A stretch of DNA of 64,000 bases from Eledone cirrhosa (lineage: Eukaryota), in NCBI GenBank assembly GCA_964016885.1, contig OZ024764.1:26164001-26228000 (forward strand), read 5' to 3'. Positions 18,456-51,735 of this stretch are shown piece after piece (positions within the stretch are counted from its first letter, which is position 1; every line of letters begins with the position of its first letter). The position numbers and the translations under genes were made by a program. Below the pieces are notes generated by a model. The model was not told the origin of the DNA, did not search any database, and worked only from the letters and a program-made list of their open reading frames with translations.

Positions 18456-18608
18456 ATGGTTTCTTTATTGGTCACAAGGGCTAACATGAAGAAAAACATT
18501 AGAGACGGCACAGGACGATACAAAGTGGCTTTTGGCCGTGTATAAAGGGGGAACCTTCTGAGGGTCACTCATGGCAAAGGCTGTAATAATGGTTTTCTGA
18601 TTTAGACT

Positions 18609-21600
18609 GGGTGAGACAGTAGGGGTTAAGTCTAAGGAGTATATTTACTGGATAAAGTCAGGTGAGAGACTGAGGGGTTATTTGGAGGGTGAGACAGTAG
18701 GGGTTAAGTCTAAGGAGTATATTTACTGAATGAAGTCGGGTGAGAAACTGAGGGGTTATTTGGAGGGTGAGACAGTAGGGGTTAAGTCTAAGGAGTATAT
18801 TTACTGAATGAAGTCGGGTGAGAAACTGAGGGGTTATTTGGAGGGTGAGACAGTAGGGGTTAAGTCTAAGGAGTATATTTACTGGATAAAGTCGGGTGAG
18901 AGACTGAGGGGTTATTTGGAGGGTGAGACAGTAGAGGTTAAGTCTAAGGAGTATATTTACTGGATAAAGTCGGGTGAGAGACTGAGGGGTTATTTGGAGG
19001 GTGAGACAGTAGGGGTTAAGTCTAAGGAGTATATTTACTGGATAAAGTCAGGTGAGAGACTGAGGGGTTATTTGGAGGGTGAGACAGTAGGGGTTAAGTC
19101 TAAGGAGTATATTTACTGGACAAAGTCAGGTGAGAGACTGAGGGGTTATTTGGAGGGTGAGACAGTAGGGGTTAAATCTAAGGAGTATATTTACTGGATA
19201 AAGTCAGGTGAGAGACTGAGGGGTTATTTGGAGGGTGAGACAGTAGGGGTTAAGTCTAAGGAGTATATTTACTGGATAAAGTCAGGTGAGACAGTAGGGG
19301 TTATTTGGAGGGTGAGACAGTAGGGGTTAAGTCTAAGGAGTATATTTACTGGATAAAGTCAGGTGAGACAGTAGGGGTTATTTGGAGGGTGAGACAGTAG
19401 GGGTTAAGTCTAAGGAGTATATTTACTGAATGAAGTCGGGTGAGAAACTGAGGGATTATTTGGAGGGTGAGACAGTAGGGGTTAAGTCTAAGGAGTATAT
19501 TTACTGAATGAAGTCGGGTGAGAAACTGAGGGGTTATTTGGAGGGTGAGACAGTAGGGGTTAAGTCTAAGGAGTATATTTACTGAATGAAGTCGGGTGAG
19601 AAACTGAGGGGTTATTTGGAGGGTGAGACAGTAGGGGTTAAGTCTAAGGAGTATATTTACTGAATGAAGTCGGGTGAGAAACTGAGGGGTTATTTGGAGG
19701 GTGAGACAGTAGGGGTTAAGTCTAAGGAGTATATTTACTGAATGAAGTCGGGTGAGAAACTGAGGGGTTATTTGGAGGGTGAGACAGTAGGGGTTAAGTC
19801 TAAGGAGTATATTTACTGGATAAAGTCGGGTGAGAGACTGAGGGGTTATTTGGAGGGTGAGACAGTAGGGGTTAAGTCTAAGGAGTATATTTACTGGATA
19901 AAGTCAGGTGAGAGACTGAGGGGTTATTTGGAGTGTGAGACAGTAGGGGGTTAAGTCTAAGGAGTATATTTACTGGATAAAGTCAGGTGAGAGACTGAGG
20001 GGTTATTTGGAGGGTGAGACAGTAGGGGTTAAGTCTAAGGAGTATATTTACTGGATAAAGTCAGGTGAGAGACTGAGGGGTTATTTGGAGGGTGAGACAG
20101 TAGGGGTTAAATCTAAGGAGTATATTTACTGGATAAAGTCGGGTGAGAGACTGAGGGGTTATTTGGAGGGTGAGACAGTAGGGGTTAAGTCTAAGGAGTA
20201 TATTTACTGGATAAAGTCGGGTGAGAGACTGAGGGGTTATTTGGAGGGTGAGACAGTAGGGGTTAAGTCTAAGGAGTATATTTACTGGATAAAGTCAGGT
20301 GAGAGACTGAGGGGTTATTTGGAGGGTGAGACAGTAGGGGTTAAGTCTAAGGAGTATATTTACTGGATAAAGTCAGGTGAGAGACTGAGGGGTTATTTGG
20401 AGGGTGAGACAGTAGGGGTTAAATCTAAGGAGTATATTTACTGGATAAAGTCGGGTGAGAGACTGAGGGGTTATTTGGAGGGTGAGACAGTAGGGGTTAA
20501 GTCTAAGGAGTATATTTACTGGATAAAGTCGGGTGAGAGACTGAGGGGTTATTTGGAGGGTGAGACAGTAGGGGTTAAGTCTAAGGAGTATATTTACTGG
20601 ATAAAGTCAGGTGAGAGACTGAGGGGTTATTTGGAGGGTGAGACAGGGGTTAAGTCTAAGGAGTATATTTACTGGATAAAGTCAGGTGAGAGACTGAGGG
20701 GTTATTTGGAGTGTGAGACAGTAGGGGTTAAGTCTAAGGAGTATATTTACTGGATAAAGTCAGGTGAGAGACTGAGGGGTTATTTGGAGGGTGAGACAGT
20801 AGGGGTTAAATCTAAGGAGTATATTTACTGGATAAAGTTGGGTGAGAGACTGAGGGGTTATTTGGAGGGTGAGACAGTAGGGGTTAAGTCTAAGGAGTAT
20901 ATTTACTGGATAAAGTCAGGTGAGAGACTGAGGGGTTATTTGGAGGGTGAGACAGTAGGGGTTAAGTCTAAGGAGTATATTTACTGGATAAAGTCAGGTG
21001 AGAGACTGAGGGGTTATTTGGAGGGTGAGACAGTAGGGGTTAAGTCTAAGGAGTATATTTACTGGATAAAGTCAGGTGAGAGACTGAGGGGTTATTTGGA
21101 GGGTGAGACAGTAGGGGTTAAGTCTAAGGAGTATATTTACTGGATAAAGTCAGGTGAGAGACTGAGGGGTTATTTGGAGTGTGAGACAGTAGGGGTTAAG
21201 TCTAAGGAGTATATTTACTGGATAAAGTCAGGTGAGAGACTGAGGGGTTATTTGGAGGGTGAGACAGTAGGGGTTAAATCTAAGGAGTATATTTACTGGA
21301 TAAAGTTGGGTGAGAGACTGAGGGGTTATTTGGAGGGTGAGACAGTAGGGGTTAAGTCTAAGGAGTATATTTACTGGATAAAGTCAGGTGAGACAGTAGG
21401 GGTTATTTGGAGGGTGAGACAGTAGGGGTTAAGTCTAAGGAGTATATTTACTGGATAAAGTCAGGTGAGACAGTAGGGGTTATTTGGAGGGTGAGACAGT
21501 AGGGGTTAAGTCTAATGAGTATATTTACTGGATAAAGTTGGGTGAGAGACTGAGGGGTTATTTGGAGGGTGAGACAGTAGGGGTTAAGTCTAAGGAGTAT

Positions 21601-24600
21601 ATTTACTGGATAAAGTCAGGTGAGACAGTAGGGGTTATTTGGAGGGTGAGACAGTAGGGGTTAAGTCTAATGAGTATATTTACTGGATAAAGTCAGGTGA
21701 GAGACTGAGGGGTTATTTGGAGGGTGAGACAGTAGGGGATAAGTCTAAGGAGTATATTTACTGGATAAAGTTGGGTGAGAGACTGAGGGGTTATTTGGAG
21801 GGTGAGACAGTAGGGGTTAAGTCTAAGGAGTATATTTACTGGACAAAGTCAGGTGAGAGACTGAGGGGTTATGTGGAGGGTGAGACAGTAGGGATTAAAT
21901 CTAAGGAGTATATTTACTGAATGAAGTCGGGTGAGAAACTGAGGGGTTATTTGGAGGGTGAGACAGTAGGGGTTAAGTCTAAGGAGTATATTTACTGAAT
22001 GAAGTCGGGTGAGAAACTGAGGGGTTATTTGGAGGGTGAGACAGTAGGGGTTAAGTCTAAGGAGTATATTTACTGAATGAAGTCGGGTGAGAAACTGAGG
22101 GGTTATTTGGAGGGTGAGACAGTAGGGGTTAAGTCTAAGGAGTATATTTACTGGATAAAGTCGGGTGAGAGACTGAGGGGTTATTTGGAGGGTGAGACAG
22201 TAGGGGTTAAGTCTAAGGAGTATATTTACTGGATAAAGTCAGGTGAGAGACTGAGGGGTTATTTGGAGTGTGAGACAGTAGGGGGTTAAGTCTAAGGAGT
22301 ATATTTACTGGATAAAGTCAGGTGAGAGACTGAGGGGTTATTTGGAGGGTGAGACAGTAGGGGTTAAGTCTAAGGAGTATATTTACTGGATAAAGTCAGG
22401 TGAGAGACTGAGGGGTTATTTGGAGGGTGAGACAGTAGGGGTTAAATCTAAGGAGTATATTTACTGGATAAAGTCGGGTGAGAGACTGAGGGGTTATTTG
22501 GAGGGTGAGACAGTAGGGGTTAAGTCTAAGGAGTATATTTACTGGATAAAGTCGGGTGAGAGACTGAGGGGTTATTTGGAGGGTGAGACAGTAGGGGTTA
22601 AGTCTAAGGAGTATATTTACTGGATAAAGTCAGGTGAGAGACTGAGGGGTTATTTGGAGGGTGAGACAGTAGGGGTTAAGTCTAAGGAGTATATTTACTG
22701 GATAAAGTCAGGTGAGAGACTGAGGGGTTATTTGGAGGGTGAGACAGTAGGGGTTAAATCTAAGGAGTATATTTACTGGATAAAGTCGGGTGAGAGACTG
22801 AGGGGTTATTTGGAGGGTGAGACAGTAGGGGTTAAGTCTAAGGAGTATATTTACTGGATAAAGTCGGGTGAGAGACTGAGGGGTTATTTGGAGGGTGAGA
22901 CAGTAGGGGTTAAGTCTAAGGAGTATATTTACTGGATAAAGTCAGGTGAGAGACTGAGGGGTTATTTGGAGGGTGAGACAGGGGTTAAGTCTAAGGAGTA
23001 TATTTACTGGATAAAGTCAGGTGAGAGACTGAGGGGTTATTTGGAGTGTGAGACAGTAGGGGTTAAGTCTAAGGAGTATATTTACTGGATAAAGTCAGGT
23101 GAGAGACTGAGGGGTTATTTGGAGGGTGAGACAGTAGGGGTTAAATCTAAGGAGTATATTTACTGGATAAAGTTGGGTGAGAGACTGAGGGGTTATTTGG
23201 AGGGTGAGACAGTAGGGGTTAAGTCTAAGGAGTATATTTACTGGATAAAGTCAGGTGAGAGACTGAGGGGTTATTTGGAGGGTGAGACAGTAGGGGTTAA
23301 GTCTAAGGAGTATATTTACTGGATAAAGTCAGGTGAGAGACTGAGGGGTTATTTGGAGGGTGAGACAGTAGGGGTTAAGTCTAAGGAGTATATTTACTGG
23401 ATAAAGTCAGGTGAGAGACTGAGGGGTTATTTGGAGGGTGAGACAGTAGGGGTTAAGTCTAAGGAGTATATTTACTGGATAAAGTCAGGTGAGAGACTGA
23501 GGGGTTATTTGGAGTGTGAGACAGTAGGGGTTAAGTCTAAGGAGTATATTTACTGGATAAAGTCAGGTGAGAGACTGAGGGGTTATTTGGAGGGTGAGAC
23601 AGTAGGGGTTAAATCTAAGGAGTATATTTACTGGATAAAGTTGGGTGAGAGACTGAGGGGTTATTTGGAGGGTGAGACAGTAGGGGTTAAGTCTAAGGAG
23701 TATATTTACTGGATAAAGTCAGGTGAGACAGTAGGGGTTATTTGGAGGGTGAGACAGTAGGGGTTAAGTCTAAGGAGTATATTTACTGGATAAAGTCAGG
23801 TGAGACAGTAGGGGTTATTTGGAGGGTGAGACAGTAGGGGTTAAGTCTAATGAGTATATTTACTGGATAAAGTTGGGTGAGAGACTGAGGGGTTATTTGG
23901 AGGGTGAGACAGTAGGGGTTAAGTCTAAGGAGTATATTTACTGGATAAAGTCAGGTGAGACAGTAGGGGTTATTTGGAGGGTGAGACAGTAGGGGTTAAG
24001 TCTAATGAGTATATTTACTGGATAAAGTCAGGTGAGAGACTGAGGGGTTATTTGGAGGGTGAGACAGTAGGGGATAAGTCTAAGGAGTATATTTACTGGA
24101 TAAAGTTGGGTGAGAGACTGAGGGGTTATTTGGAGGGTGAGACAGTAGGGGTTAAGTCTAAGGAGTATATTTACTGGACAAAGTCAGGTGAGAGACTGAG
24201 GGGTTATGTGGAGGGTGAGACAGTAGGGATTAAATCTAAGGAGTATATTTACTGGATAAAGTCAGGTGAGAGACTGAGGGGTTATTTGGAGGGTGAGACA
24301 GTAGGGGTTAAATCTAAGGAGTATATTTACTGGACAAAGTCAGGTGAAAGACTGAGGAGTTATTTGGAGGGTGAGACAGTAGGGGTTAAGTCTAAGGAGT
24401 ATATTTACTGGATAAAGTCAGGTGAGAGACTGAGGGGTTATTTGGAGGGTGAGACAGTAGGGGTTAAGTCTAAGGAGTATATTTACTGGATAAAGTCAGG
24501 TGAGAGACTGAGGGGTTATTTGGAGGGTGAGACAGTAGGGGTTAAATCTAAGGAGTATATTTACTGGATAAAGTCAGGTGAGAGACTGAGGGGTTATTTG

Positions 24601-25040
24601 GAGGGTGAGACAGTAGGGGTTAAGTCTAAGGAGTATATTTACTGGATAAAGTCAGGTGAGAGACTGAGGGGTTATTTGGAGGGTGAGACAGTAGGGGTTA
24701 AGTCTAAGGAGTATATTTACTGGACAAAGTCAGGTGAGAGACTGAGGGGTTATGTCTAAGGAGTATATTTACTGGACAAAGTCAGGTGAGAGACTGAGGG
24801 GTTATTTGGAGGGTGAGACAGTAGGGGTTAAGTCTAAGGAGTATATTTACTGGATAAAGTCAGGTGAGAGACTGAGGGATTATTTGGAGGGTGAGACAGT
24901 AGGGGTTAAGTCTAAGGAGTATATTTACTGGATAAAGTCAGGTGAGAGACTGAGGGATTATTTGGAGGGTGAGACAGTAGGGGTTAAGTCTAAGGAGTAT
25001 ATTTACTGGATAAAGTCAGGTGATAGACTGAGGGGTTATG
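18609..25040 (+). repeat. 78-bp minisatellite array 1 (~82 copies)
   Basis: Unit gagggtgagacagtaggggttaagtctaaggagtatatttactggataaagtcaggtgagagactgaggggttatttg. Confidence 0.96.
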
Positions 25041-25077
25041 TGGGTGGTGGAACAATATGTCTAAGAATTCTACTCAC

Positions 25078-25181
25078 TGGACAAAGTACCAACAGCATCA
25101 TTTGTAGTGGCCAGACTGTGGCTTTTTTCTTGGAGTTCTCTGTAAAGCTGTTGAACAGCTCAAACATTTTATCACAGTAGT
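25078..25181 (-). CDS. NF1: Neurofibromin exon (8th in window), 104 nt, (D)[34 protein letters not shown]
   Basis: tttacag|AC and CCA|gtgagt; resembles human ECAEKLFDLVDGFAESTKRKAAVWPLQIILLILCP (recalled); phase 1/0. Confidence 0.95.
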
Positions 25182-25280
25182 CTGTAAAGATGGACAACAG
25201 GGGAAAAAAAAGAAAATTTGATATTATTAAGAGTGGCGACTATAATTTAATTATTGCACACACGCATATATATGTATGTA

Positions 25281-25351
<71 letters not shown>

Positions 25352-25384
25352 ATGTATATATATATATATATATATATACATATG

Positions 25385-25427
<43 letters not shown>

Positions 25428-25454
25428 ATACATACATACATATGTGTGTGTATA

Positions 25455-25855
25455 TAAAAGCTGACCTTTGACACTTGAACCTCTCTAAGAAAATGAAACA
25501 GGATCAAGATCTTTGGCGCTATGCAGTAATACAGAAATCCTACCTTTCCCTTGCACACAGACTTAAATTTACATTCAGTAGGGACCTCTTGATCCAATAT
25601 ACACCCTACACTCCCTCCCACCTCCGCCCACACTGTAGAGAAGTGGTGGAGGGGATATGTCAGAAAGCTCCCAGTCCACACTGTAAATGTGGTTGGTGTT
25701 AAGAAGGGCATCCAGCCGTAGAAAACCTGTCAGATAGTCCCATACGAGTGAGACACGGTCACCCGACCAATCTGGCCTCAAGTGGTACAACTCCCGTCTA
25801 ACCCATGCTAGCGTGTAAGAGAGACGTTAAAAGAGATGACGATGATGATGATATA
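25455..25855 (+). mobile_element. Degenerate RTE LINE 3' fragment with (GAT)n tail
   Basis: ataaaagctgacctt...gatctttggcgctatgcagtaatacag...cccgtctaacccatgctagc...gatgatgatg parallels 54380-54790. Confidence 0.75.
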
Positions 25856-25896
25856 TATATCATCATCATCATCATTTAACGTTATTATTATTATAA

Positions 25897-26085
25897 GAGG
25901 GCGGTGGATTGGCGGCAGTATCGGTAGAGGATCGGACGCCATGCTTTCCAGCATAGTTACGTCCCTTTACGATCTGAGTTGAAATCCCGCCGAGGTTGAC
26001 TTTGCCTTTCATCCTTACGGGGTCGATAAAATAAAGTACCAGTAATGCACTGGGTAATTGCTGGCCTTGTGCCAACAGTAGAAAC
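25897..26085 (+). mobile_element. tRNA-derived SINE (family A), near-complete copy
   Basis: ggcggtggattggcggcagtatcggtag head, gagttgaaatcc B-box-like, core and tail to gtagaaacaattattatt. Confidence 0.8.
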
Positions 26086-26232
26086 AATTATTATTATTAT
26101 AATGATGGCGCTGAGGACAACAATGATATTTAGAAATATGAAATTCAAATACATATTTGTATACAGCTATGTTCGAAGCTAAATTATAATTCTGATCTAC
26201 TATAAGTTGAGCCAACTTATACAGCTTCATAT

Positions 26233-28767
26233 AAACAGGCGAAAATGTATAGTTATTTTACGTCTGTGTAAATGGGGTGATTTTTTTTGGAGATGACCTC
26301 ATTTACACAAACTATACGGTCATATAAAAAGATCAACTTGTGGTGTGAGTAGGTTATGCCTGGACGGAAGGTTCACTGGTAAGAGAAGCAGAGTCCGGCA
26401 GCCAAAACCATGGCTTGATAATGTCAACCTATGGACTGGACTTGATCTTTGCTCTTTAATCTCTGCTGTTGGTGATTGAAAAGTATTATATATTCCTGGA
26501 AGGAAGGTTGGCTGGTAAGAGAAGCAGAGTCCGGCAGCCAAAACCATGGCTTGATAATGTCAACTTATGGACTGGACTTGATCTTTGCTCTTTAATCTCT
26601 GCTGTTGGTGATTGAAAGGTATTATATATTCCTGGAAGGAAGGTTGGCTGGTAAGAGAAGCAGAGTCCGGCAGCCAAAACCATGGCTTGATAATGTCAAC
26701 CTATGGAATACAGTTTCATATACAAATAAGATTAATCACCTCTTTTACATAGACGAGAATAACTATATATTTTCGCCTGTTTCAAAGTCCAGCAGTTGCC
26801 AGAGCGGGAGAGACTCTCCTGGTGAGAACCAGTTGAGTTCGAAATGGATCGACGATTGTCCATCTTGCTTCTACTAGACACTGCTGGGTCGTGTTAGCTG
26901 CCAGTGTTTTTCATAGCTATGGCTTTCTAAATGTTTATTTATAAACATACCGTATTTCTTTAGAAATACGAAGTTTAAATACATATTTTTTGTATACAGC
27001 TATGTTCGAAGCTAAATTCTAATTCTATTTTAAGTTGAGCCAATTTATACAGCTTCATATGCAAATAAGACTTTCCTGACTCTTGTACATTATTCACCTC
27101 ATTTATTATTTGACGCTAAACTCCACTATTTGCAGACTGCTCATCAACATGAAATATTTTTCTCCACAAAGTTCCATCACCAATAACAGAGTTTAAACTC
27201 CAGTCCATAAGTTGACATTATCAAGCCATGGTTTGGGCTGCCAGCCTCTGCTTCTCTTACCAGCCAACCTTCCTTCCAGGAATATATAATACCTTTCAAT
27301 CACCAACAGCAAAGTTTAAAGAGCAAAGATCAAGTCCAGTCCATAAGTTGACATTATCAAGTCATAGTTTTGGCTGCCAGCCTCTGCTTCTCTTACCAGC
27401 CAACCTTCCTTCCAGGAATATATAATACCTTTCGATCACCAACAGCAGAGTTTAAAGAGCAAAGATCAAGTCCAGTCCATAGGTTGACATTATCAAGCCA
27501 TGGTTTTGGCTGCCAGCCTCTGCTTCTCTTACCAGCCAACCTTCCTTCCAGGAATATATAATACCTTTCAATCACCAACAGCAAAGTTTAAAGAGCAAAG
27601 ATCAAGTCCAGTCCATAAGTTGACATTATCAAGCCATGGTTTTGGCTGCCAGCCTCTGCTTCTCTTACCAGCCAACCTTCCTTCCAGGAATATATAATAC
27701 CTTTCAATCACCAACAGCAGAGTTTAAAGAGCAAAGATCAAGTCCAGTCCATAAGTTGACATTATCAAGTCATAGTTTTGGCTGCCAGCCTCTGCTTCTC
27801 TTACCAGCCAACCTTCCTTCCAGGAATATATAATACCTTTCAATCACCAACAGCAGAGTTTAAAGAGCAAAGATCAAGTCCAGTCCATAAGTTGACATTA
27901 TCAAGTCATAGTTTTGGCTGCCAGCCTCTGCTTCTCTTACCAGCCAACCTTCCTTCCAGGAATATATAATACCTTTCAATCACCAACAGCAGAGTTTAAA
28001 GAGCAAAGATCAAGTCCAGTCCATAAGTTGACATTATCAAGCCATGGTTTGGGCTGCCAGCCTCTGCTTCTCTTACCAGCCAACCTTCCTTCCAGGAATA
28101 TATAATACTTTTCAATCACCAACAGCAGAGTTTAAAGAGCAAAGATCAAGTCCAGTCCATAAGTTGACATTATCAAGTCATAGTTTTGGCTGCCAGCCTC
28201 TGCTTCTCTTACTACCCAACCTTCCTTCCAGGAATATATAATACTTTTCAATCACCAACAGCAGAGTTTAAAGAGCAAAGATCAAGTCCAGTCCATAAGT
28301 TGACATTATCAAGTCATAGTTTTGGCTGCCAGCCTCTGCTTCTCTTACCAGCCAACCTTCCTTCCAGGAATATATAATACCTTTCAATCACCAACAACAG
28401 AGTTTAAAGAGCAAAGATCAAGTCCAGTCCATAAGTTGACATTATCAAGTCATAGTTTTGGCTGCCAGCCTCTGCTTCTCTTACTACCCAACCTTCCTTC
28501 CAGGAATATATAATACTTTTCAATCACCAACAGCAGAGTTTAAAGAGCAAAGATCAAGTCCAGTCCATAGGTTGACATTATCAAGCCATGGTTTTGGCTG
28601 CCGGACTCTGCTTCTCTTACCAGTGAACCTTCCGTCCAGGCATAACCTACTCACACCACAAGTTGATCTTTTTATATGACCGTATAGTTTGTGTAAATGA
28701 GGTCATCTCCAAAAAAAAATCACCCCATTTACACAGACGTAAAATAACTATACATTTTCGCCTGTTT
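26233..28767. repeat. Large inverted repeat whose arms contain 136-bp tandem units (~2.5 copies left, ~10.5 copies right)
   Basis: 26233-~26460 is the reverse complement of ~28540-28767; the unit translates as LEGRLAGKRSR.RQPKPWLDNVNLWTGL, resembling an RTE ORF C-terminus. Confidence 0.88.
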
Positions 28768-29090
28768 CAAAGTCTGGTAGTGGCAAACGGGAAACACTGC
28801 CTCGGCAAGAACCATTTTAGTTTGAAATAAATCAACGGTTGTCCCCCTTGCTTCTGCCAAACACCACTTGGCGGCGTTCACCGCCAATGTTATGTTCATA
28901 GCTATGGCTTTCAGAATATTTATTTATAAACATACCGTGTTTCTTTAGAAATATGAAATACAAATACATAAATGATAATGATGTTTACAATAATGATGGC
29001 GATAATAACGATGATAATGAAAGTGCTGATGACAACAATGACCCTAACGAGGACAGTAACGAGGACAGTAACGATAATGAAAAGTCTCAC

Positions 29091-29166
29091 CTTGTAATTC
29101 GCTGTCTGGTTTCTGGTGTAAATTGTTAAATTCATGAGGGTAATTGTCCATCCAGTTCCAAATCGC
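29091..29166 (-). CDS. NF1: Neurofibromin exon (7th in window), 76 nt, AIWNWMDNYPHEFNNLHQKPDSELQ
   Basis: tcag|GCG and G|gtgag; resembles human AFWNWVENYPDEFTKLYQIPQTDMA (recalled); phase 0/1. Confidence 0.95.
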
Positions 29167-29199
29167 CTGACAAAACAATACCAAACATTATAAGGGGGT

Positions 29200-29830
29200 T
29201 AGTTTATTAGGGGTCAACTCTGTTGAAAGGGAGCCTCACAGGGCCAAACCCCACAGTATTTAACACCTTTAGTTTATTAAGGGTCAACTCTGTTGGAAGG
29301 GAACCACACAGGGCCAAACCCCACAGTATTTAACACCCTTAGTTTATTAAGGGTCAACTCTGTTGGAAGGGAACCACACAGGGCCAAACCCCACAGTATT
29401 TAACACCCTTAGTTTATTAAGGGTCAACTCTGTTGGAAGGGAACCACACAGGGCCAAACCCACAGTATTTTGTACCCTTAGTTTATTAAGGGTCAACTCT
29501 GTTGGAAGGGAACCACACAGGGCCAAACCCACAGTATTTTGTACCCTTAGTTTATTAAGGGTCAACTCTGTTGGAAGGGAACCACACAGGGCCAAACCCA
29601 CAGTATTTTGTACCCTTAGTTTATTAAAGGTCAACTCTGTTGTAAGGGAACCACACAGGGCCAAACCCCACAGTATTTAACACCCTTAGTTTATTAAGGG
29701 TCAACTCTGTTGGAAGGGAACCACACAGGGCCAAACCCCACAGTATTTAACACCCTCAGCTTATTAAGGGTCAACTCTGTTGGAAAGGAACCACACAGGG
29801 CCAAACCCCACAGTATTTTGTGCCCTTAGC
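29200..29830. repeat. 68-69-bp minisatellite (~9 copies)
   Basis: Unit agtttattaagggtcaactctgttggaagggaaccacacagggccaaaccccacagtatttaacaccctt. Confidence 0.93.
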
Positions 29831-33933: not shown

Positions 33934-34004
33934 CTTTTCTATATTGTGTGCTAATGTGTAGATTACTGATTTCTGTTTCAACGTTTTGAATTTTGAGCCA
34001 ATTT
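33934..34004 (-). CDS. NF1: Neurofibromin exon (6th in window), 71 nt, (E)IGSKFKTLKQKSVIYTLAHNIEK
   Basis: tttcag|AA and AAG|gtttgg; resembles human ETAFKFKALKKVAQLAVINSLEK (recalled); phase 1/0 fits neighbours. Confidence 0.88.
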
Positions 34005-34934: not shown

Positions 34935-35041
34935 CATTTAACAATTTAATCAAGCGTATCATGTCCACATTGATGTGTTGTATTAACTCTAGATCAGAGA
35001 GGTCGGACTGGTCCTCACTACAGGTGGACAATGTCGTTAAC
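34935..35041 (-). CDS. NF1: Neurofibromin exon (5th in window), 107 nt, (R)LTTLSTCSEDQSDLSDLELIQHINVDMIRLIKLLN
   Basis: cccag|G and G|gtgagt; resembles human LQELTVCSEDNVDVHDIELLQYINVDCAKLKRLLK (recalled); phase 2/1. Confidence 0.95.
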
Positions 35042-35044
35042 CTG

Positions 35045-37366: not shown

Positions 37367-37488
37367 CGAGCTGAAATTCTGTGAAATACGGCAGTGAAAT
37401 TATTTTGACTGAGAGCATATAAGACTTTGGAAGCCAATGTTTTCAACTGCAGGGCAAGTGGAGTGGCTTCTGTTGACCAGTTCAGACA
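37367..37488 (-). CDS. NF1: Neurofibromin exon (4th in window), 122 nt, CLNWSTEATPLALQLKTLASKVLYALSQNNFTAVFHRISA(R)
   Basis: ctttcag|TGT and CG|gtgagt; resembles human ELRNSASGVLFSLSCNNFNAVFSRISTR (recalled); phase 0/2. Confidence 0.93.
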
Positions 37489-39383: not shown

Positions 39384-39452
39384 TTTACAAATTTCTGGCA
39401 GCAGTAGCTTCACGTACATAGCTTCATCTAATCGGCTTGTGTCTTTTGGTTG
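39384..39452 (-). CDS. NF1: Neurofibromin exon (3rd in window), 69 nt, QPKDTSRLDEAMYVKLLLPEICK
   Basis: ctcag|CAA and AAA|gtaag; resembles human QPKDTMRLDETMLVKQLLPEICH (recalled). Confidence 0.96.
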
Positions 39453-40702: not shown

Positions 40703-40786
40703 TGAATTAAGTACTTGTTCCAAAGTGTCCAAAATAATCAACTGAGACTCAAAGAAATTTCTTTCAACCTCTGGGCCATTTAATCT
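40703..40786 (-). CDS. NF1: Neurofibromin exon (2nd in window), 84 nt, RLNGPEVERNFFESQLIILDTLEQVLNS
   Basis: tgcag|AGA and TCA|gtaagt; resembles human RIFGEAAEKNLYLSQLIILDTLEKCLAG (recalled). Confidence 0.95.
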
Positions 40787-40904: not shown

Positions 40905-42295
40905 TGGAAAGTTCTGCTGGTGACACGACAAAAACAGAGCATCCAGTCCACTCTGTAAAGTGGTCGTGTTGGTGACACAACAAAAACAGAGCACCCAGCC
41001 CACTCTGTAAAGTGGTTGTGTTGATGACACGACAAAATGTACCCAGTCCACCCTGTAAGGTGGTCTGCTGGTGACACAACAAAACGTACCCAGTCCACTC
41101 TGTAAAGTGGTCATGCTGGTGACACAACAAAACGTACCCAGTCCACTCTGTAAAGTGGTCATGCTGGTGACTAGACAAAAACAGACCACTCTGTAAAGTG
41201 GTTGTGTTGGTGACACAACAAAAAGTACCCAGTCCACACTGTAAGGTGGTCTGCTGGTGACACAAAACGTACCAAGTCCACTCTGTAAAGTGGCCCGCTG
41301 GTGACTAGACAAAAACAGACGACTCTGTAAAGTGGTTGTGTTGGTGACAACAAATGTACCCAGTCCACCCTGTAAGGTGGGCTGCTGGTGACACAACAAA
41401 AAGTGCCCAGTCCACACTGTAAAGTGGCCTTGCTGGTGACTAGACAAAAACAGACCACTCTGTAAAGTGGTTGTGTTGGTGACACAACAAAAAGTACCCA
41501 GTCCACACTGTAAGGTGGTCTGCTGGTGACACAACAAAATGTATCTAGTCCACTCTGTAAAATGGCCTTGCTGGTGACTAGACAAAAACAGACCACTCTG
41601 TAAAGTGGTTGTGTTGGTGACACAACAAATGTACCCAGTCCACCCTGTAAGGTGGGCTGCTGGTGACACAACAAAAAGTGCCCAGTCCACACTGTAAAGT
41701 GGCCTTGCTGGTGACTAGACAAAAACAGACCACTCTGTAAAGTGGTTGTGTTGGTGACACAACAAAAAGTACCCAGTCCACACTGTAAGGTGGTCTGCTG
41801 GTGACACAACAAAATGTATCCAGTCCACTCTGTAAAGTGGCCTTGCTGGTGACTAGACAAAAACAGACCACTCTGTAAAGTGGTTGTGTTGGTGACACAA
41901 CAAATGTACCCAGTCCACCCTGTAAGGTGGGCTGCTGGTGACACAACAAAAAGTGCCCAGTCCACACTGTAAAGTGGCCTTGCTGGTGACTAGACAAAAA
42001 CAGACCACTCTGTAAAGTGGTTGTGTTGGTGACACAACAAAAAGTACCCAGTCCACACTGTAAGGTGGTCTGCTGGTGACACAACAAAATGTATCCAGTC
42101 CACTGTGTAAAGTGGCCATGCTGGTGACTAGACAAAAACAGACCACTCTGTAAAGTGGTTGTGTTGGTGACACAACAAATGTACCCAGTCCACCCTGTAA
42201 GGTGGGCTGCTGGTGACACAACAAAAAGTGCCCAGTCCACCCTGTAAGGTGGTCATGCGGGTGGCACGACAAAAAGTACCCAGTCCGCACGGTGG
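40905..42295 (+). repeat. Diverged 49-bp-family array with ~275-bp higher-order period
   Basis: cccagtccacactgtaa(a/g)gtgg core; identical ORF starts at 41690, 41965, 42240. Confidence 0.88.
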
Positions 42296-42541
42296 TCCGG
42301 GTGCTTCTTGTTGTGACACCTACACGACCACTTTACAGTGTGGGCTAGATGCTTCTAGTCATGACACCTACACAACCACTTTACAGTGTGGGCTGGATGC
42401 TTTTTGCCGTGACACCTACACAACCACTTTACAGTGTGGGCTGGATGCTTTTTGCCGTGATACCTACACAACCACTTTACAGTGTGGGCTGGATGCTTTT
42501 TGCCGTGACACCTACACAACCACTTTACAGTGTGGGCTGGA
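42296..42541 (-). repeat. Inverted 49-bp-family units (~5 copies)
   Basis: gacacctacacaaccactttacagtgtgggctgg is the reverse complement of the family core. Confidence 0.85.
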
Positions 42542-42569
42542 AGTTTATATAAAACAAAACAATACATAC

Positions 42570-42713
42570 TGTATTTGATATTGACTGTAATATTTTGGTG
42601 AGTCCATTGATGACCAAAGAGAACTTGTAGTTGCTCACATTTATTATACACTCTTTGTTCTGTTCTACATTCTGAATGGACTGGGTTGTGTGTTGACCCT
42701 TTTTCACAGGTAA
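42570..42713 (-). CDS. NF1: Neurofibromin exon (1st in window; equivalent of coding exon 2), 144 nt, LPVKKGQHTTQSIQNVEQNKECIINVSNYKFSLVINGLTKILQSISNT
   Basis: ttgcag|TTA and ACA|gtatgt; resembles human LPIKTGQQNTHTKVSTEHNKECLINISKYKFSLVISGLTTILKNVNNM (recalled). Confidence 0.96.
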
Positions 42714-42814
42714 CTGCAAATAAAAACACATAAGGAATTAATTTGATGGCATATATCACCACCCAACATATTAAACCCACCTCCAACTTTTACTCAGGTA
42801 ACTGCAAATTTCTT

Positions 42815-43470
42815 CTTCTTTTATGCCCACTTATTCCTGAGTGGGTCATGCAAGCAGAGTCTTCAAACACTCCTTCCAGAAGGTCCTGTCAGAAGCAACC
42901 ATCTCCAACCGATCCGGTTGGATCCACAAGTAAGACCAGGCAAGTTCATGGATGTTATCCAACCACCTTGCCCAGGGTCTACCCCTGGATCTCATACCGG
43001 TTCGTTTTGCCCGTAAAAATCTGTCTTGCAATTCTTTCCTGTGACATTCTAACCACATGCCCACAGCATCAGAGCTGTGACCTCTAAATTTGGTGAAGTC
43101 ACGGCTCTACCAGGAGTGACACTCTGATCTGAGTTATGCACTCTATCAAGTAACTTTACTCCAAAGACCCTTTGGAGGAACCTCCATTTCAGCCGCTCGT
43201 ATTCTCTCAGTCATTACCCAAAATTCATGACCATAGGAAAGGGTTGGAACGAATACCGAATTGAAGATAGCAAGTTTCCCTTTTACGCCTACCTCCCTTC
43301 TTCTAATTACTGAATGCTGAAGATGATGCATTACTGCACCAGCTCCTGCAATTCTTGCACTTAATTCAGCCTCCTCCCTTCCATCGTTCGTGAACATTAC
43401 CCTGAGATACTTGAACTTCTCTACCTGCTTCAGTGAAACTCCATGCACATGTAGAGGGCACTGTGCGAGG
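42815..43470 (-). mobile_element. Decayed RTE LINE fragment (different subfamily), frameshifted
   Basis: LKQVEKFKYL...KLAIFNSVFVPTLSYGHEFWVMTERIRAAEM and RSRGRPWARWLDNI..LAWSYL motifs. Confidence 0.8.
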
Positions 43471-44099
43471 AATATTAACCCTTAGAAAGTATAAAACAGC
43501 ACTATGACTGCATCACATTAAATATTATAGTCTTCACTACTGCAAATGTTCACAACAATCTGTCTATTGTTGAAGATAGTATAAACACTAGCAGAAAAAC
43601 CACCCTTCCGGTAGTTTTCTGCTAGCATGTGTAGTGTGTATATTGATATTATACACAAGTATATATACATGTAGATATGATACATCAAATAACATCGTAA
43701 TTGACAATATACACAGAAATTGAACAAAGACTGCGTTACACTGTCTTATGTAATCAATAAAGTAATCCATGATACATTAAAAAAAGACGATGTTATATAT
43801 AAACTGTATTAGGAGAAAATTAGTGACGGAAATATATGAATGTTTATTTAAGCGATCGCTAACTGGAAGTGTTGACATTTGAAAATTTTAAAGAAGTGAA
43901 TCTTAAAATAACCAACAAAATTATTTATATTTAATCAAGAATAACGAAATTTACTAGATAAATTATGTAATATTCATTCCTTATTTATTCAAAGTAATCC
44001 AACTTATTTTACAAACGGGATAAAAAAAATATATTCTGGAAGCTGTCCCACACTCCTTACTTTATTGTAGTTTAGATTTGAAGTAACAAACCATATGAA

Positions 44100-45082
44100 A
44101 CCAGCACAACCACAACACCACCACCACCTTAACAACCACCATGACATCACCACAACACCACAATTACCAACACCACACCACCACAACATCACAACCACAA
44201 CACCATCACAACCACAACACCATCACAACCACAACACCATCAGCACCACAACACCATCACCAACAACACCACCACCAACACCACCACCATCACCATCACA
44301 ACCATCTTAACATCAACACCACCACCTCACAACTACCACAACTAACACCACCATCACTACACCACTACCATAACTACCACCACCACCACCACAACACCAC
44401 CACTACACACCACACTGCCACTACACCATCACCACCACCATTACACACCACCACCACCACAATTACACTACACCACTACTACACTACCACCACCAACACA
44501 ACTACACTACCACTACCACCACACCACTACACTACTACCACCAGCACCACACCACTACCACCACCACCAGCACTACACCACCACCACCAACACTACACCA
44601 CCACCACTACACCACCACACCACCACCACCACACCACCACCACCACCACCACCACACCACCACCACCACACCACTACCACCACCGCCACCACCACACCAC
44701 CACACCACCACCACTACACCACCACTACCACCACCACCACCACCACCACCACTACACCACCACCACCACCACACCACCACACCACCACCACCACTACACC
44801 ACCACCACCACCACCACTACACCACCACCACACCACTACACCACCACCACCACCACCACCACCACCACTACACCACCACCACCACCACCACACCACTACA
44901 CCACCACCACCACCACCACCACACCACCACCACCACTACACCACCACCACCACCACCACCACACCACTACACCACCACCACTACACCACCACCACACCAC
45001 TACACCACCACCACCACCACCACCACCACCACCACCACCACCACCACCACCACCACCATTACACCACCACCACCACCACCAC
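44100..45082. repeat. (CAC/CTA)n low-complexity tract
   Basis: Directly visible. Confidence 0.93.
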
Positions 45083-45306
45083 AGAGGCTACAAAATCTAA
45101 GCTGAAGTCACTGTGAGAGAGAAAAACGCTTCAACGGAAGGATTAAACATATGATGTAATTCATGAATATTCATGAGGTAGTGTTGCGTTGGGAGAAGGA
45201 GGAGGTAGAAGGGAAAGAGAGTGAACAGCGAGTGAGATACACTGACAGAGAGAGAAAGAGAGAGAGTGTGTGAGGATGAGTGAGAGGTTATGTATGTATG
45301 TGTGTG

Positions 45307-45359
<53 letters not shown>

Positions 45360-45453
45360 ATATAAAGTGAGTTAGAGAGAGAGAGAGGGGGGGGGAGGAG
45401 GAGAGTGTAAGACTGAACGGGCGTATAGGTATTTATATACGCGTGTGTGTATA

Positions 45454-45527
<74 letters not shown>

Positions 45528-45564
45528 ATATAATTATATATATTATCATTATATACACAAACAA

Positions 45565-45676
45565 ATCCCGCCGAGGTTAACTTTGCCTTTCATCCTTACG
45601 GGGTCGATAAAATAAAGTACCAGTAATGTACTGCGTACCTGCTGGCCTTGTGCCTAAAATAGAAACAATTATATAT

Positions 45677-45707
<31 letters not shown>

Positions 45708-46280
45708 CATATATATAAAACAATGTAATCTCTGATCGAGATGAAGCGTTAGTGTATTTGATTAAATACATATAAAAATGTGAAAACAGCCGTTAAAACA
45801 GCTAAATGCTGTCAAAGACGGCTATGGGTAAAAATGCCTGAGAGGACACATCATGGCGTCCGACCCTCTGCCGATTACTGCCAGTTCACCGCCTTCAATA
45901 ACAGTTGTCTCTACCTTAGACACGAGGCCAGCAATTTTGGGGGAGGGGAAAGTCGATTAAATTGGCCCCCAGTGCGTGACTGGTACTTTATTTTTTCGAC
46001 CCCCGTAAGGATGAAAGGCAAGGCTAACCTCAGCGGGATTTGAACTCACACCATAAAGGGACGTAACTCTGTGCTGCAAAGAATAGCGTCCGAGCCTCAA
46101 CCGATACTGCCAATCCACCGCCTTCAAAAATAATTGTTTCTACTTTTGGCTCAAGGCCAGCAATTACCCCAGTGTATTACTGGTGTTTTATTTTATCGAC
46201 CCCGTAAGGATGAAAGGCAAAGTTAACCTTGGCGGGATTTGAACTCAGAATGGCAAGGGCCGTAACTCTATGCGTCAAAA
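45565..46280. mobile_element. Cluster of SINE family A fragments in both orientations
   Basis: Core gttaactttgcctttcatccttacggggtcgataaaataaagtaccag on + at ~45575 and on - at ~45980 and ~46180. Confidence 0.75.
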
Positions 46281-46284
46281 ATAA

Positions 46285-46662
46285 TAATGGTTTCTTTATT
46301 GGCCACAAGGGCTAACGGGAAGAAAAACATTAGAGACAGCACAGGACGATACAAAGTGGGTTTGGGCCGTATAAAAAGGTTATAAAAGACAGAAACATGT
46401 AAAATAAATTAAAATTCAAACAACAAAAATTCCCCAATAGGGAGGGAGCTTGCGAGAGTCACTCATGGCGATAACCACACAAAAGACCACGGCCACTCTG
46501 ATCACCAGGGCAAGCAGCGCCCCTCTCTCAGTTTTCCCACTACTCAGTCTACAGGCGCATACTCAGAGTGGGCCCGTTCACTTGGACCAGATTCGCAACT
46601 TTCACCCACATTCAACAAACTTACTAGAAGACAGCAGTGACCTTTCCAGCCGCCTTCACTTA
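46285..46662 (-). mobile_element. Putative 3' end of another non-LTR retrotransposon (L1/Tx1-like)
   Basis: Minus strand has a decayed coding end (..KVANLVQVNGPTLSMRL*) then a UTR ending ggccaataaagaaacc; shorter copies of this tail at 18456-18585 and 51455-51583. Confidence 0.45.
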
Positions 46663-46937
46663 TAATTGTTTCTGCTTTTGGCACAAGGCCAACAATTACC
46701 CCCAGTGTATTACTGGAGAAATTGCTAGATTTGTTATGTCTTCATTACGTTTGAGTATTGATGCGCGTTTTGCTATTGATCAGCTCATGGTTCAATCTGT
46801 GTCCATCTAGCCTGACTTTGGAAGCAAAAGCTCGTCGGACCTTTGCTGTGGTATAGAGGATCGGACGCCATGCTTTGACGCATAGAGTTACGGCCCTTGC
46901 CATTCTGAGTTCAAAATCCTGCCGAGGTTAACTTTGC

Positions 46938-49900
46938 CTCAGTCTCTCACCTGACTTTATCCAGTAAATATACTCCTTAGACTTAACCCCTACTGTCTCA
47001 CCCTCCAAATAACCCCTCAGTCTCTCACCTGACTTTATTCAGTAAATATACTCCTTAGACTTAACCCCTACTGTCTCACCCTCCAAATAACCCCTCAGTC
47101 TCTCACCTAACTTTATCCAGTAAATATACTCCTTAGACTTAACCCCTACTGTCTCACCCTCCAAATAACCCCTCAGTCTCTCACCTGACTTTATCCAGTA
47201 AATATACTCCTTAGACTTAACCCCTACTGTCTCACCCTCCAAATAACCCCTCAGTCTCTCACATGACTTTATCCAGTAAATATACTCCTTAGACTTAACC
47301 CCTACTGTCTCACCCTCCAAATAACCCCTCAGCCTCTCACCCGACTTTATCCAGTAAATATACTCCTTAGACTTAATCCCTACTGTCTCACCCTCCAAAT
47401 AACCCCTCAGTCTCTCACCCAACTTTATCAAGTAAATATACTCCTTAGACTTAACCCCTACTGTCTCACCCTCCAAATAACCCCTCAGTCTCTCACCTGA
47501 CTTTATTCAGTAAATATACTCCTTAGACTTAACCCCTACTGTCTCACCCTCCAAATAAACCCACAGTCTCTCACCTGACTTTATTCAGTAAATATACTCC
47601 TTAGACTTAACCCCTGCTGTCTCACACTCCAAATAACCCCTCAGTCTCTCACCTGACTTTATCCAGTAAATATACTCCTTAGACTTAACCCCTACAGTCT
47701 CACCCTCCAAATAACCCCTCAGTCTCTCACCCAACTTTATCCAGTAAATATACTCCTTAGACTTAACCCCTACTGTCTCACCCTCCAAATAACCCCTACT
47801 GTCTCACTTGACTTTATCCAGTAAATATACTCCTTAGACTTAACCCCTACTGTCTCACCCTCCAAATAACCCCTCAGTCTCTCACCTGACTTTATCCAGT
47901 AAATATACTCCTTAGACTTAACCCCTACTGTCTCACCCTCCAAATAACCCCTCAGTCTCTCACCTAACTTTATCCAGTAAATATACTCCTTAGACTTAAT
48001 CCCTACTGTCTCACCCTCCAAATTACCCCTGTCTCTCACCCAACTTTATCCAGTAAATATACTCCTTAGACTTAACCCCTACTGTCTCACCCTCCAAATA
48101 ACCCCTCAGTCTCTCACCCAACTTTATCCAGTAAATATACTCCTTAGACTTAACCCCTACTGTCTCACCCTCCAAATAACCCCTCAGTCTCTCACCTGAC
48201 TTTATTCAGTAAATATACTCCTTAGACTTAACCCCTACTGTCTCACCCAAATAAACCCTCAGTCTCTCACCTGACTTTATTCAGTAAATATACTCCTTAG
48301 ACTTAACCCCTGCTGTCTCACACTCCAAATAACCCCTCAGTCTCTCACCTGACTTTATCCAGTAAATATACTCCTTAGACTTAACCCCTACAGTCTCACC
48401 CTTCAAATAACCCCTCAGTCTCTCACATGACTTTATCCAGTAAATATACTCCTTAGACTTAACCCCTACTGTCTCACCCTCCAAATAACCCCTCAGCCTC
48501 TCACCCGACTTTATCCAGTAAATATACTCCTTAGACTTAATCCCTACTGTCTCACCCTCCAAATAACCCCTCAGTCTCTCACCCAACTTTATCCAGTAAA
48601 TATACTCCTTAGACTTAACCCCTACTGTCTCACCCTCCAAATAACCCCTCAGTCTCTCACCTGACTTTATTCAGTAAATATACTCCTTAGACTTAACCCC
48701 TACTGTCTCACCCTCCAAATAAACCCTCAGTCTCTCACCTGACTTTATTCAGTAAATATACTCCTTAGACTTAACCCCTGCTGTCTCACACTCCAAATAA
48801 CCCCTCAGTCTCTCACCTGACTTTATCCAGTAAATATACTCCTTAGACTTAACCCCTACAGTCTCACCCGCCAAATAACCCCTCAGCCTCTCACCTGACT
48901 TTATCCAGTAAATATACTCCTTAGACTTAACCCCTGTCTCACCCTCCAAATAACCCCTCAGTCTCTCACCCAACTTTATCCAGTAAATATACTCCTTAGA
49001 CTTAACCCCTACTGTCTCACTCTCCAAATAACCCCTACTGTCTCACCTGACTTTATCCAGTAAATATACTCCTTAGACTTAACCCCTACTGTCTCACCCT
49101 CCAAATAACCCCTCAGTCTCTCACCTGACTTTATCCAGTAAATATACTCCTTAGACTTAACCCCTACTGTCTCACACTCCAAATAACCCCTCAGTCTCTC
49201 ACCCAACTTTATCCAGTAAATATACTCCTTAGACTTAACCCCTACTGTCTCACCCTCCAAATAACCCCTCAGTCTCTCACCTGACTTTATCCAGTAAATA
49301 TACTCCTTAGACTTAACCCCTACTGTCTCACACTCCAAATAACCCCTCAGTCTCTCACCCAACTTTATCCAGTAAATATACTCCTTAGACTTAACCCCTA
49401 CTGTCTCACCCTTCAAATAACCCCTCAGTCTCTCACATGACTTTATCCAGTAAATATACTCCTTAGACTTAACCCCTACTGTCTCACCCTCCAAATAAAC
49501 CCTCAGTCTCTCACCTGACTTTATTCAGTAAATATACTCCTTAGACTTAACCCCTGCTGTCTCACACTCCAAATAACCCCTCAGTCTCTCACCTGACTTT
49601 ATCCAGTAAATATACTCCTTAGACTTAACCCCTACAGTCTCACCCGCCAAATAACCCCTCAGCCTCTCACCTGACTTTATCCAGTAAATATACTCCTTAG
49701 ACTTAACCCCTGTCTCACCCTCCAAATAACCCCTCAGTCTCTCACCCAACTTTATCCAGTAAATATACTCCTTAGACTTAACCCCTACTGTCTCACTCTC
49801 CAAATAACCCCTACTGTCTCACCTGACTTTATCCAGTAAATATACTCCTTAGACTTAACCCCTACTGTCTCACCCTCCAAATAACCCCTCAGTCTCTCAC

Positions 49901-51431
49901 CTGACTTTATCCAGTAAATATACTCCTTAGACTTAACCCCTACTGTCTCACACTCCAAATAACCCCTCAGTCTCTCACCCAACTTTATCCAGTAAATATA
50001 CTCCTTAGACTTAACCCCTACTGTCTCACCCTCCAAATAACCCCTCAGTCTCTCACCTGACTTTATCCAGTAAATATACTCCTTAGACTTAACCCCTACT
50101 GTCTCACACTCCAAATAACCCCTCAGTCTCTCACCCAACTTTATCCAGTAAATATACTCCTTAGACTTAACCCCTACTGTCTCACCCTTCAAATAACCCC
50201 TCAGTCTCTCACATGACTTTATCCAGTAAATATACTCCTTAGACTTAACCCCTACTGTCTCACCCTCCAAATAACCCCTCAGCCTCTCACCCGACTTTAT
50301 CCAGTAAATATACTCCTTAGACTTAATCCCTACTGTCTCACCCTCCAAATAACCCCTCAGTCTCTCACCCAACTTTATCCAGTAAATATACTCCTTAGAC
50401 TTAACCCCTACTGTCTCACCCTCCAAATAACCCCTACTGTCTCACCTGACTTTATCCAGTAAATATACTCCTTAGACTGAACCCCTACTGTCTCACCCTC
50501 CAAATAACCCCTCAGTCTCTCACCTGACTTTATCCAGTAAATATACTCCTTAGACTTAACCCCTACTGTCTCACACTCCAAATAACCCCTCAGTCTCTCA
50601 CCCAACTTTATCCAGTAAATATACTCCTTAGACTTAACCCCTACTGTCTCACCCTCCAAATAACCCCTCAGTCTCTCACCCAACTTTATCCAGTAAATAT
50701 ACTCCTTAGACTTAACCCCTACTGTCTCACCCTCCAAATAACCCCTACTGTCTCACCTGACTTTATCCAGTAAATATACTCCTTAGACTGAACCCCTACT
50801 GTCTCACCCTCCAAATAACCCCTCAGTCTCTCACCTGACTTTATCCAGTAAATATACTCCTTAGACTTAACCCCTACTGTCTCACACTCCAAATAACCCC
50901 TCAGTCTCTCACCCAACTTTATCCAGTAAATATACTCCTTAGACTTAACCCCTACTGTCTCACCCTCCAAATAACCCCTCAGTCTCTCACCTGACTTTAT
51001 CCAGTAAATATACTCCTTAGACTTAACCCCTACTGTCTCACCCTCCAAATAACCCCTACTGTCTCACCTGACTTTATCCAGTAAATATACTCCTTAGACT
51101 TAACCCCTACTGTCTCACCCTCCAAATAACCCCTGTCTCTCACCTAACTTTATCCAGTAAATATACTCCTTAGACTTAACCCCTGCTGTCTCACCCTCCA
51201 AATAACCCCTCAGTCTCTCACCCGACTTTATCCAGTAAATATACTCCTTAGACTTAACCCCTACTGTCTCACACTCCAAATAACCCCTCAGTCTCTCACC
51301 TGACTTTATCCAGTAAATATACTCCTTAGACTTAACCCCTACTGTCTCACACTCCAAATAACCCCTCAGTCTCTCACCTGACTTTATCCAGTAAATATAC
51401 TCCTTAGACTTAACCCCTACTGTCTCACCCA
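46938..51431 (-). repeat. 78-bp minisatellite array 2 (~57 copies), inverted relative to array 1
   Basis: Reverse complement of the 18609-25040 unit. Confidence 0.96.
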
Positions 51432-51584
51432 GTCTAAATCAGAAAACCATTATTACAGCCTTCGCCATGAGTGACCCTTGGAAGTTTCCCCCTTTATACA
51501 CGGCCAAAAGCCACTTTGTATCGTCCTGTGCCGTCTCTAATGTTTTTCTTCATGTTAGCCCTTGTGGCCAATAAAGAAACCATT

Positions 51585-51735
51585 TGGCAGTATCGGTAGA
51601 GGGTCGGACGCCATGCTTTGCAGCAAAGAGTTACGACCCTTTATAGTCTGAGTTCAAATCCAGCCGAGGTTAACTTTGCCTTTCATCTTTACGGGGTCGA
51701 TAAAATAAAGTACCAGTCACGCAGTGGGGTTGATT
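51585..51735 (+). mobile_element. SINE family A copy with a single head unit
   Basis: tggcagtatcggtagagggtcggacgccatgctttgcagc...gagttcaaatcc...taccagtcacgcagtgggg. Confidence 0.8.

Follow-up and report, generated by a model that had tools for sequence, protein, structure and literature searches.

Gene-private inverted minisatellites around exons 2-9 of NF1 in Eledone cirrhosa: a likely by-product of splice-junction repeat formation and local inverted copying

Introduction

Two long arrays of one 78-bp unit stand in opposite orientation on either side of eight exons of the neurofibromin gene (NF1) of the octopod Eledone cirrhosa. This raises the question of whether such a structure works as an RNA device or is a trace of repeat turnover. 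The window in this study was the whole stretch of 64,000 nucleotides (nt) at positions 26,164,001 to 26,228,000 of contig OZ024764.1 (assembly GCA_964016885.1). A sequence-only reading of this window had interpreted the arrays as a double-stranded RNA (dsRNA) loop and a back-splicing scaffold for circular RNA (circRNA). Overall, this interpretation was partly supported, and its structural premises held. We consider it probable that the gene-private inverted minisatellites were a neutral product of two events, the formation of a splice-site "mirage" and local inverted copying. With normal splicing in the one spliced transcript found, the arrays probably came from repeat turnover as a side effect, though some circular RNA might still arise from them.

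Two inverted arrays bracket exons 2-9

The window contained NF1 exons 2-12 on the minus strand, eleven exons with AG/GT borders that together encoded 413 codons with no stops. Exon 2 aligned with residues 21-67 of human neurofibromin, and the nearest named proteins were the Octopus sinensis models P0001 (98% over exon 2) and P0011. Exon 1 was located 17.6 kb outside the window, at window-equivalent positions 81676-81617 (L007:7676-7617). The features on which the argument depends were as follows.

18609..25043, plus strand: array 1, in NF1 intron 9; about 83 copies of the 78-bp unit (Tandem Repeats Finder, TRF)
46937..51430, minus strand: array 2, in NF1 intron 1; about 58 units running opposite to array 1 (TRF)
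42714..64000, minus strand: NF1 intron 1 (part; full length 38,903 nt)
42570..42713, minus strand: NF1 exon 2, 144 nt, whose acceptor the proposed circle would use (AG/GT, homology, spliced contig)
40703..40786, minus strand: NF1 exon 3, 84 nt
39384..39452, minus strand: NF1 exon 4, 69 nt
37367..37488, minus strand: NF1 exon 5, 122 nt
34935..35041, minus strand: NF1 exon 6, 107 nt
33934..34004, minus strand: NF1 exon 7, 71 nt
29091..29166, minus strand: NF1 exon 8, 76 nt (also in the spliced contig)
25078..25181, minus strand: NF1 exon 9, 104 nt, donor used in contig X4 and likely source of the repeat unit
14733..14798, minus strand: NF1 exon 10, 66 nt, spliced to exon 9 in contig X4

Both arrays had a period of 78 bp in the TRF output, which divided array 1 into 18609-24753 and 24733-25043 (78.9+4.0 copies) and gave 57.9 copies for 46937-51430. 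The best minus-strand self-alignment joined 18424-23112 to 51615-46937 over 4,699 bp at 95.6% identity, including 185 bp of outer flank, which confirmed that inverted 78-bp arrays surround the eight exons. The distance between the arms was 21,893 nt. Array 1 was housed in intron 9 (10,279 nt) and ended 35 nt from the donor at 25078, close to the roughly 40 nt first estimated, and 4,224 nt lay between array 2 and the acceptor at 42713.

Exons 2-9 added up to 777 nt with phase 0 at both ends, as had been proposed, and frame 0 had no stops when it was followed around the circle three times. A circle of these exons would therefore be the predicted stop-free loop of 259 codons, and this open loop contained 6 methionine (Met) codons. 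However, of the 66 blocks of contiguous exons that exons 2-12 can form, 37 had a length divisible by three, exons 2-10 (843 nt) being one of them, so the phase symmetry of exons 2-9 was not special in NF1.

The repeat unit is confined to NF1

A search of the 3.0-Gb genome with a 156-bp query of the unit returned 62 matches in 2 candidate regions, all inside the two arrays. Similarly, an exact 21-mer of the unit occurred 66 times forward and 57 times reverse in the whole genome, numbers that the window by itself already accounted for. Since all 123 of these exact matches were inside the two arrays, the arms did not behave as members of a dispersed family. Because the unit was present only there, any sequencing read on it can be traced to a single gene and a single partner.

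Array 1 resembles the exon 9 splice donor

The 32-mer at the junction of exon 9 and intron 9 (the last 10 nt of the exon and the first 22 nt of the intron) matched the unit at 25 of 32 positions and single units at up to 27 of 32. We compared every 32-mer outside the arrays in the 264-kb region with all registers of the unit on both strands. Only 1 of 252,974 positions scored 25, namely the exon 9 junction, which adjoins array 1, and the two positions scoring 24 were its neighbours. The real junction remained in register with an internal unit over one period, with 56 of 71 letters in agreement and a 7-nt gap (counted from the alignment). It can be described as one more feature of the locus.

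25007..25087, minus strand: degenerate edge unit, made up of the final 10 nt of exon 9, the real donor and 71 nt at the start of intron 9

On the sense (minus) strand, the units of array 1 carried a copy of the end of exon 9 and a weakened donor. There were 83 GT pseudo-donors (73+10) on this strand, the first of them 71 nt past the real donor and the others following every 78 nt, so the splice dinucleotide was kept in the repeats. Donors were compared with the U1 consensus. The pseudo-donors had no G at -1 and no G at +5; four of the 11 real donors also lacked the G at -1, and all four of these had the G at +5. The pseudo-donors differed from the real exon 9 donor at +3 and +5 and looked weaker.

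Judged from the letters of the locus, array 1 fits the class of splice-donor "mirage" minisatellites, examples of which occur in amphioxus and in human F7. The unit contained an exon-intron boundary of its host gene, though in a degenerate form with only 10 exonic nt. Array 1 adjoined the copied boundary, and array 2 was located apart from it as a displaced copy. Splicing at the authentic site was normal in one contig (X4), where rare forms are invisible. Amphioxus mirages (Adh3, BflGb6/BflGb9, troponin C, PGBD5) have repeats that run across an exon-intron border, a retained splice dinucleotide, an edge unit that is not homogenised and normal splicing, all as in NF1 (PMC3087553, PMC3902484). 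BflGb6 has 3-6 units versus about 83 here (PMC3087553, PMC3902484), and, unlike the amphioxus cases, NF1 has a further array in a different intron, 22 kb off, which is inverted and counts about 58 units. The first element of the 37-bp variable number tandem repeat (VNTR) in intron 7 of human F7 also spans the exon-intron border, and the most upstream donor is used there while the downstream pseudo-donors are silent (PMC1557585). The F7 pseudo-donors are identical to the real donor (PMC1557585), in contrast to the weaker-looking ones of NF1, and the F7 VNTR differs from array 1 in having no inverted partner array. Mirages leave normal splicing undisturbed (PMC3087553, PMC3902484, PMC1557585).

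No junction-derived array was accepted at other NF1 exons: the 34 exons considered, some of them approximate, had 13 other arrays no more than 120 bp from an edge, and the best 24-mers there scored 13-17 of 24 versus 18 of 24 for exon 9. Separately, the O. sinensis model P0001 ran past the exon 9 donor as V-N-I, like the unit, and the donor in E. cirrhosa read V-S-R. With three codons seen in protein only, this resemblance was a hint and not evidence.

Array 2 is likely an inverted copy that expanded separately

Sharing between the two array sites was limited to the outer flanks, for which three further features are needed.

18424..18608, plus strand: outer flank of array 1, in which the end of a short dispersed repeat and another repeat fragment are combined with about 60 bp that are private
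51432..51615, minus strand: outer flank of array 2, with 5 mismatches in 184 bp against the array 1 flank
15001..15137, plus strand: rest of the short dispersed repeat, matching 51729-51585

The arrays had been described as having a shared unique flank. The flank was indeed shared, on the outer side only, and its first ~93 bp were not unique, being a dispersed repeat (433 first-look candidates, of which 40 were scored). The full composite from flank to array was confined to the two array sites. The short dispersed repeat at 15001..15137, which we take to be SINE-like (short interspersed element), was parted from the array 1 flank by a 3.3-kb array of 45-bp units, and no such array was present at the second copy. 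Together, the outer flank common to both copies was ~330 bp long at 96-97% identity, including ~140 bp beyond the 45-bp array. The inner end of array 2 entered another copy of the same short dispersed repeat.

Parsing gave 82 units in array 1 and 57 in array 2, with 19 and 26 distinct types, respectively, and 4 types in common. Among variants seen at least 2 times, 14 were common to both arrays, 9 were private to array 1 and 10 were private to array 2. The longest exact run common to both arrays was 157 bp, and exact repeats inside the arrays reached 2,355 and 827 bp, each array having its own large internal duplications or higher-order blocks. Divergence was 3.7% between the arrays and 3.2% and 3.7% within them. 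The exact internal duplications point to recent expansion, and the inverted copy looks young, given the few mismatches between the flanks. Since array 1 merges into exon 9, it was the likely source, and array 2 was likely a local templated reverse copy that later expanded on its own.

The putative course of events would then have four steps. Array 1 would have begun with tandem duplication of the exon 9 donor junction, and the real junction would have stayed at the edge as a unit that escaped homogenisation. Subsequently, break repair or a template switch between repeat copies might have placed the flank and several units in reverse orientation into intron 1. The two arrays would have expanded independently afterwards. 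Finally, pairing over 21.9 kb would compete with intron 1 splicing and with ADAR, and a circle, an exon skip or hyper-editing would be a minor by-product.

Several other repeats were found next to these elements. A LINE-like insertion (long interspersed element; reverse-transcriptase-like, a label given from reading) of ~3 kb on the plus strand, at ~51790-54780, adjoined the outer flank of array 2. Arrays with 45-, 48/49- and 138-bp units (2591-10260, 15107-18455, 40943-42541) were expanded pieces of common dispersed repeats, the 45-bp array being an outgrowth of the short repeat beside the array 1 flank. The sense strand of array 2 (46937-51430) contained 37% G with a GC skew of ~0.7 and 31 copies of a strong donor-like 9-mer (8/9 to consensus), making it a possible R-loop or cryptic-donor region.

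The transcript is linear and the arms can pair

The sequencing data comprised four runs of one study, all as assembled contigs. Contig X4 was taken as RNA because it was spliced; it represents one run of unknown tissue, and assembled contigs drop rare forms. It was 7,106 nt long at a depth of 19.5 and began 68 nt 5' of the ATG. In contig X4, exon 1 was spliced onto exon 2, and exons 8, 9 and 10 were joined in order with the authentic donor at 25078 in use; the contig's offsets (128 + 673 nt; exon 9 piece at 800-905) fitted inclusion of every exon from 2 to 8. The exons were collinear, and the main NF1 product was a normal linear mRNA. The exon 1-exon 2 join crossed array 2, and hence both arrays belonged to one pre-mRNA. 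This settled in its favour the condition that the sequence-only reading had attached to its duplex, namely that exon 1 lies upstream of array 2. No back-splice or skip was seen at the exon 9 or exon 1 donor among the loose ends listed for the contigs, which is not evidence of absence. The repeat unit had no coverage in run X4. DNA contigs from three runs of one sample, possibly the source of the assembly, joined array 1 to exon 9.

A 156-nt duplex between the arms had a predicted energy of -262 kcal/mol versus -13 and -25 for the self-folds, in agreement with the claim that the arms could form a duplex. Both arms were poorly self-folded and A-rich (27% and 29%). As with inverted repeats that promote circRNA formation, inverted arms were present in both flanking introns of one pre-mRNA.

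Inverted pairs are common, long ones are not

Complex arrays (83 in number) made up 36% of the 264-kb region. As a background sample, we used 15 hand-picked 100-kb blocks, 14 of them from contigs under 56 Mb, and counted inverted pairs of at least 90% identity with a gap of up to 30 kb. There were 22 pairs of at least 500 bp (in 8 of the 15 blocks) and 6 of at least 1 kb (in 5 of 15). One control pair had the same layout as NF1, with a common outer flank of 217 bp and a 28-kb gap. Three control pairs were not private to their locus, and the units of all three matched other blocks. Against this background, the NF1 array pair was usual in kind and unusual in size.

Reverse matches of at least 100 bp were also found in 38 of the 210 pairs of NF1 introns 1-21 (borders beyond exon 12 being approximate). 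Introns 1 and 9 formed the top reverse-complement pair with 7,498 bits, followed by 10/21 (2,209), 17/21 (2,159) and 1/10 (1,386; 926 bp).

Some of the smaller inverted matches deserve a separate description. Arrays of a 72-bp family in intron 10 (11414-13888) and intron 1 (75675-76600 window-equivalent, L007) had a 926-bp inverted match at 94% that brackets exons 2-10. Within intron 8, 26233-26707 matched 28292-28767 in reverse over 476 bp at 96.8%, again with common outer flanks; the arrays involved had 136-bp units (26355-26707 and 27199-28644), were 492 bp apart and shared their unit with other places in the region. This intron 8 pair is a candidate for a much closer hairpin available to editing. 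A 72-bp pair with a gap of 5.7 kb in NF1 was likewise closer than the 78-bp arms. A near-perfect palindrome of ~300 bp was located in intron 11 (window 1500-1830), and a self-inverted match of 290 bp in intron 18.

Alternative readings of the locus

The best surviving alternative was a working RNA clamp, in which pairing of introns 1 and 9 would yield substantial circNF1(2-9) and/or an in-frame skip of exons 2-9 (-259 residues), tuned by ADAR. We regard this as unlikely. The two arms belong to one transcription unit and form the strongest reverse-complement match in NF1, they are poorly self-folded and A-rich, any register can pair, and the 777-nt loop is open and contains Met codons. On the other hand, the transcript actually present was the full linear form (though rare forms were not excluded), 21.9 kb and seven introns separate the arms, phase 0/0 is common in NF1 and the inverted copy looks young. 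A stronger version is decidedly unlikely: here the clamp would drive abundant neural circNF1 (exons 2-9 read as a 259-codon frame without end) or an in-frame skip at the N-terminus, would be switched by ADAR hyper-editing and would have converged on human circNF1.

Alu-type SINEs are ~300 bp long. Unlike Alu pairs, the NF1 arms consist of minisatellites private to this gene, 4.5 and 6.4 kb long, and the circle between them is putative. The likeness is that inverted Alu pairs (e.g., at HIPK3) also surround an exon block starting at exon 2, and circles are only modestly predicted by inverted repeats (PMC12093144). The sequence-only reading had mentioned circRNAs from the 5' exons of mammalian NF1, and a human one does exist: circNF1 (hsa_circ_0042881) comprises exons 2-8 and has been validated (PMC10457341, PMC11955112). 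The circNF1 paper attributed its biogenesis to EIF4A3. The circle proposed here has the same gene and the same acceptor, exon 2 in E. cirrhosa beginning at human residue 21. Exon 11 here begins at human residue 297, which we take to be the start of human exon 9. By this assumed border, human circNF1 would correspond to exons 2-10 here (843 nt), one exon beyond the array-bracketed block, and exons 2-10 are bracketed by the weaker intron 1/10 pair and not by the 78-bp arrays alone.

Reports from octopus and other animals are relevant to both the circle and the editing. Octopus circRNAs are low overall, with 296 left after filtering, which weighs against the clamp, and octopus editing occurs mostly in introns and 3' untranslated regions, which speaks for it (PMC9699675). 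NF1 or neurofibromin is not named as a circRNA in a part of the supplements of that paper; the list of 296 is probably outside this part and may bear on the claim. Also in favour, editing in metazoans chiefly targets the dsRNA of young repeats (PMC9989829). On the opposing side, Alu editing is favoured at distances below 2 kb and within one intron (PMC4761006), and the NF1 arms are 21,893 nt apart. In the open-access literature, we found no paper in which minisatellite pairs drive circRNA formation in a cephalopod.

Several observations weigh against a purely neutral origin. The geometry is circRNA-like: the block begins at the exon 2 acceptor, the flanking introns are 38.9 kb and 10.3 kb long, and one arm is 35 nt from the donor. 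The arrays apparently have no other partner in the genome, and the intron 1/9 match is 3.4 times that of the next-best NF1 intron pair. Only 1 background pair reached at least 2 kb and 0 reached at least 3 kb in the 15 blocks. In human, the orthologous gene yields a circle that also starts at this acceptor (PMC10457341, PMC11955112). Long near-perfect inverted pairs are depleted even in pre-mRNAs across 49 species, among which octopus is not mentioned in the portions covered (PMC7006430), and this makes the 4.5-kb NF1 pair notable. Finally, the RNA evidence for linear splicing was one assembled contig from one run of unknown tissue, with rare forms dropped. We still consider the neutral origin by mirage formation and inverted copying the probable one.

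At the DNA level, ectopic recombination between the 4.5-kb arms of 96% identity might invert exons 2-9 (leaving an exon 1-10 in-frame deletion) or swap variants between the arrays. Arm length and identity would allow this, 14 variants were common, and the divergence between the arrays was near that within them. Additionally, NF1 of O. sinensis was split on one contig into two models at intron 9, where P0001 ended past exon 9 and P0011 began in exon 10. However, a seed copy of several units explains the common variants as well, the longest exact run in common was 157 bp, exon 1 is still connected to exons 2-9 in P0001, and contig X4 was collinear. We judge this recombination very unlikely.

An assembly error in array 2 or its orientation is more improbable again, to the point of being extremely unlikely. 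Multi-kb arrays are prone to such errors, and no read was seen to span array 2 from flank to flank. Nevertheless, array 2 had 10 private variants and its own higher-order blocks, which make an assembly duplicate less likely, and its flank differed at 5 of 184 sites. DNA contigs joined array 1 to exon 9, and contig X4 confirmed the exon order. Least likely of all, and rejected, was a foldback-type mobile element that had captured exons 2-9 between terminal inverted repeats: the common outer flanks and inverted tandem-array arms resemble one in geometry, but the reading was largely refuted by a unit that is confined to the locus and matches a host exon junction, with array 1 merging into exon 9 and the enclosed exons being NF1's own and collinear.

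A candidate pair of mutually exclusive exons

Outside the window, NF1 contained two homologous exons of the Ras-GAP domain (L020:1141-1017 and L022:7291-7155, both on the minus strand), ~49 and ~63 kb beyond the left end of the window. They were 125 and 137 nt long, both open, with AG/GT borders and 48% amino-acid identity. Since both lengths are 2 mod 3, using both exons would shift the frame. One was present in O. sinensis P0011 (100%), and the other matched human NF1 residues 1357-1397 and was 95% conserved in two other records. The human isoform with a longer GAP domain (7pgp) matched only query residues 16-42, and its insert seems to fall inside this stretch. These exons are candidate mutually exclusive exons, and a search of the open-access literature found nothing on mutually exclusive Ras-GAP exons.

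Implications

In this reading, the NF1 locus of E. cirrhosa combines splice-junction minisatellites with local inverted copying on a large scale, both processes being common ones. It also offers a clean test of whether very long arms can pair, be edited and drive back-splicing over 22 kb in an animal whose RNA is heavily edited and whose circRNAs are few, since reads on the unit can be assigned to their locus, which Alu-type repeats do not permit. Should a circle prove abundant, minisatellite pairs, frequent as they were in the small chromosomes sampled, would be candidates for supplying octopods with dsRNA and circRNA. If the clamp were real, minisatellite pairs would be the octopod counterpart of Alu pairs.

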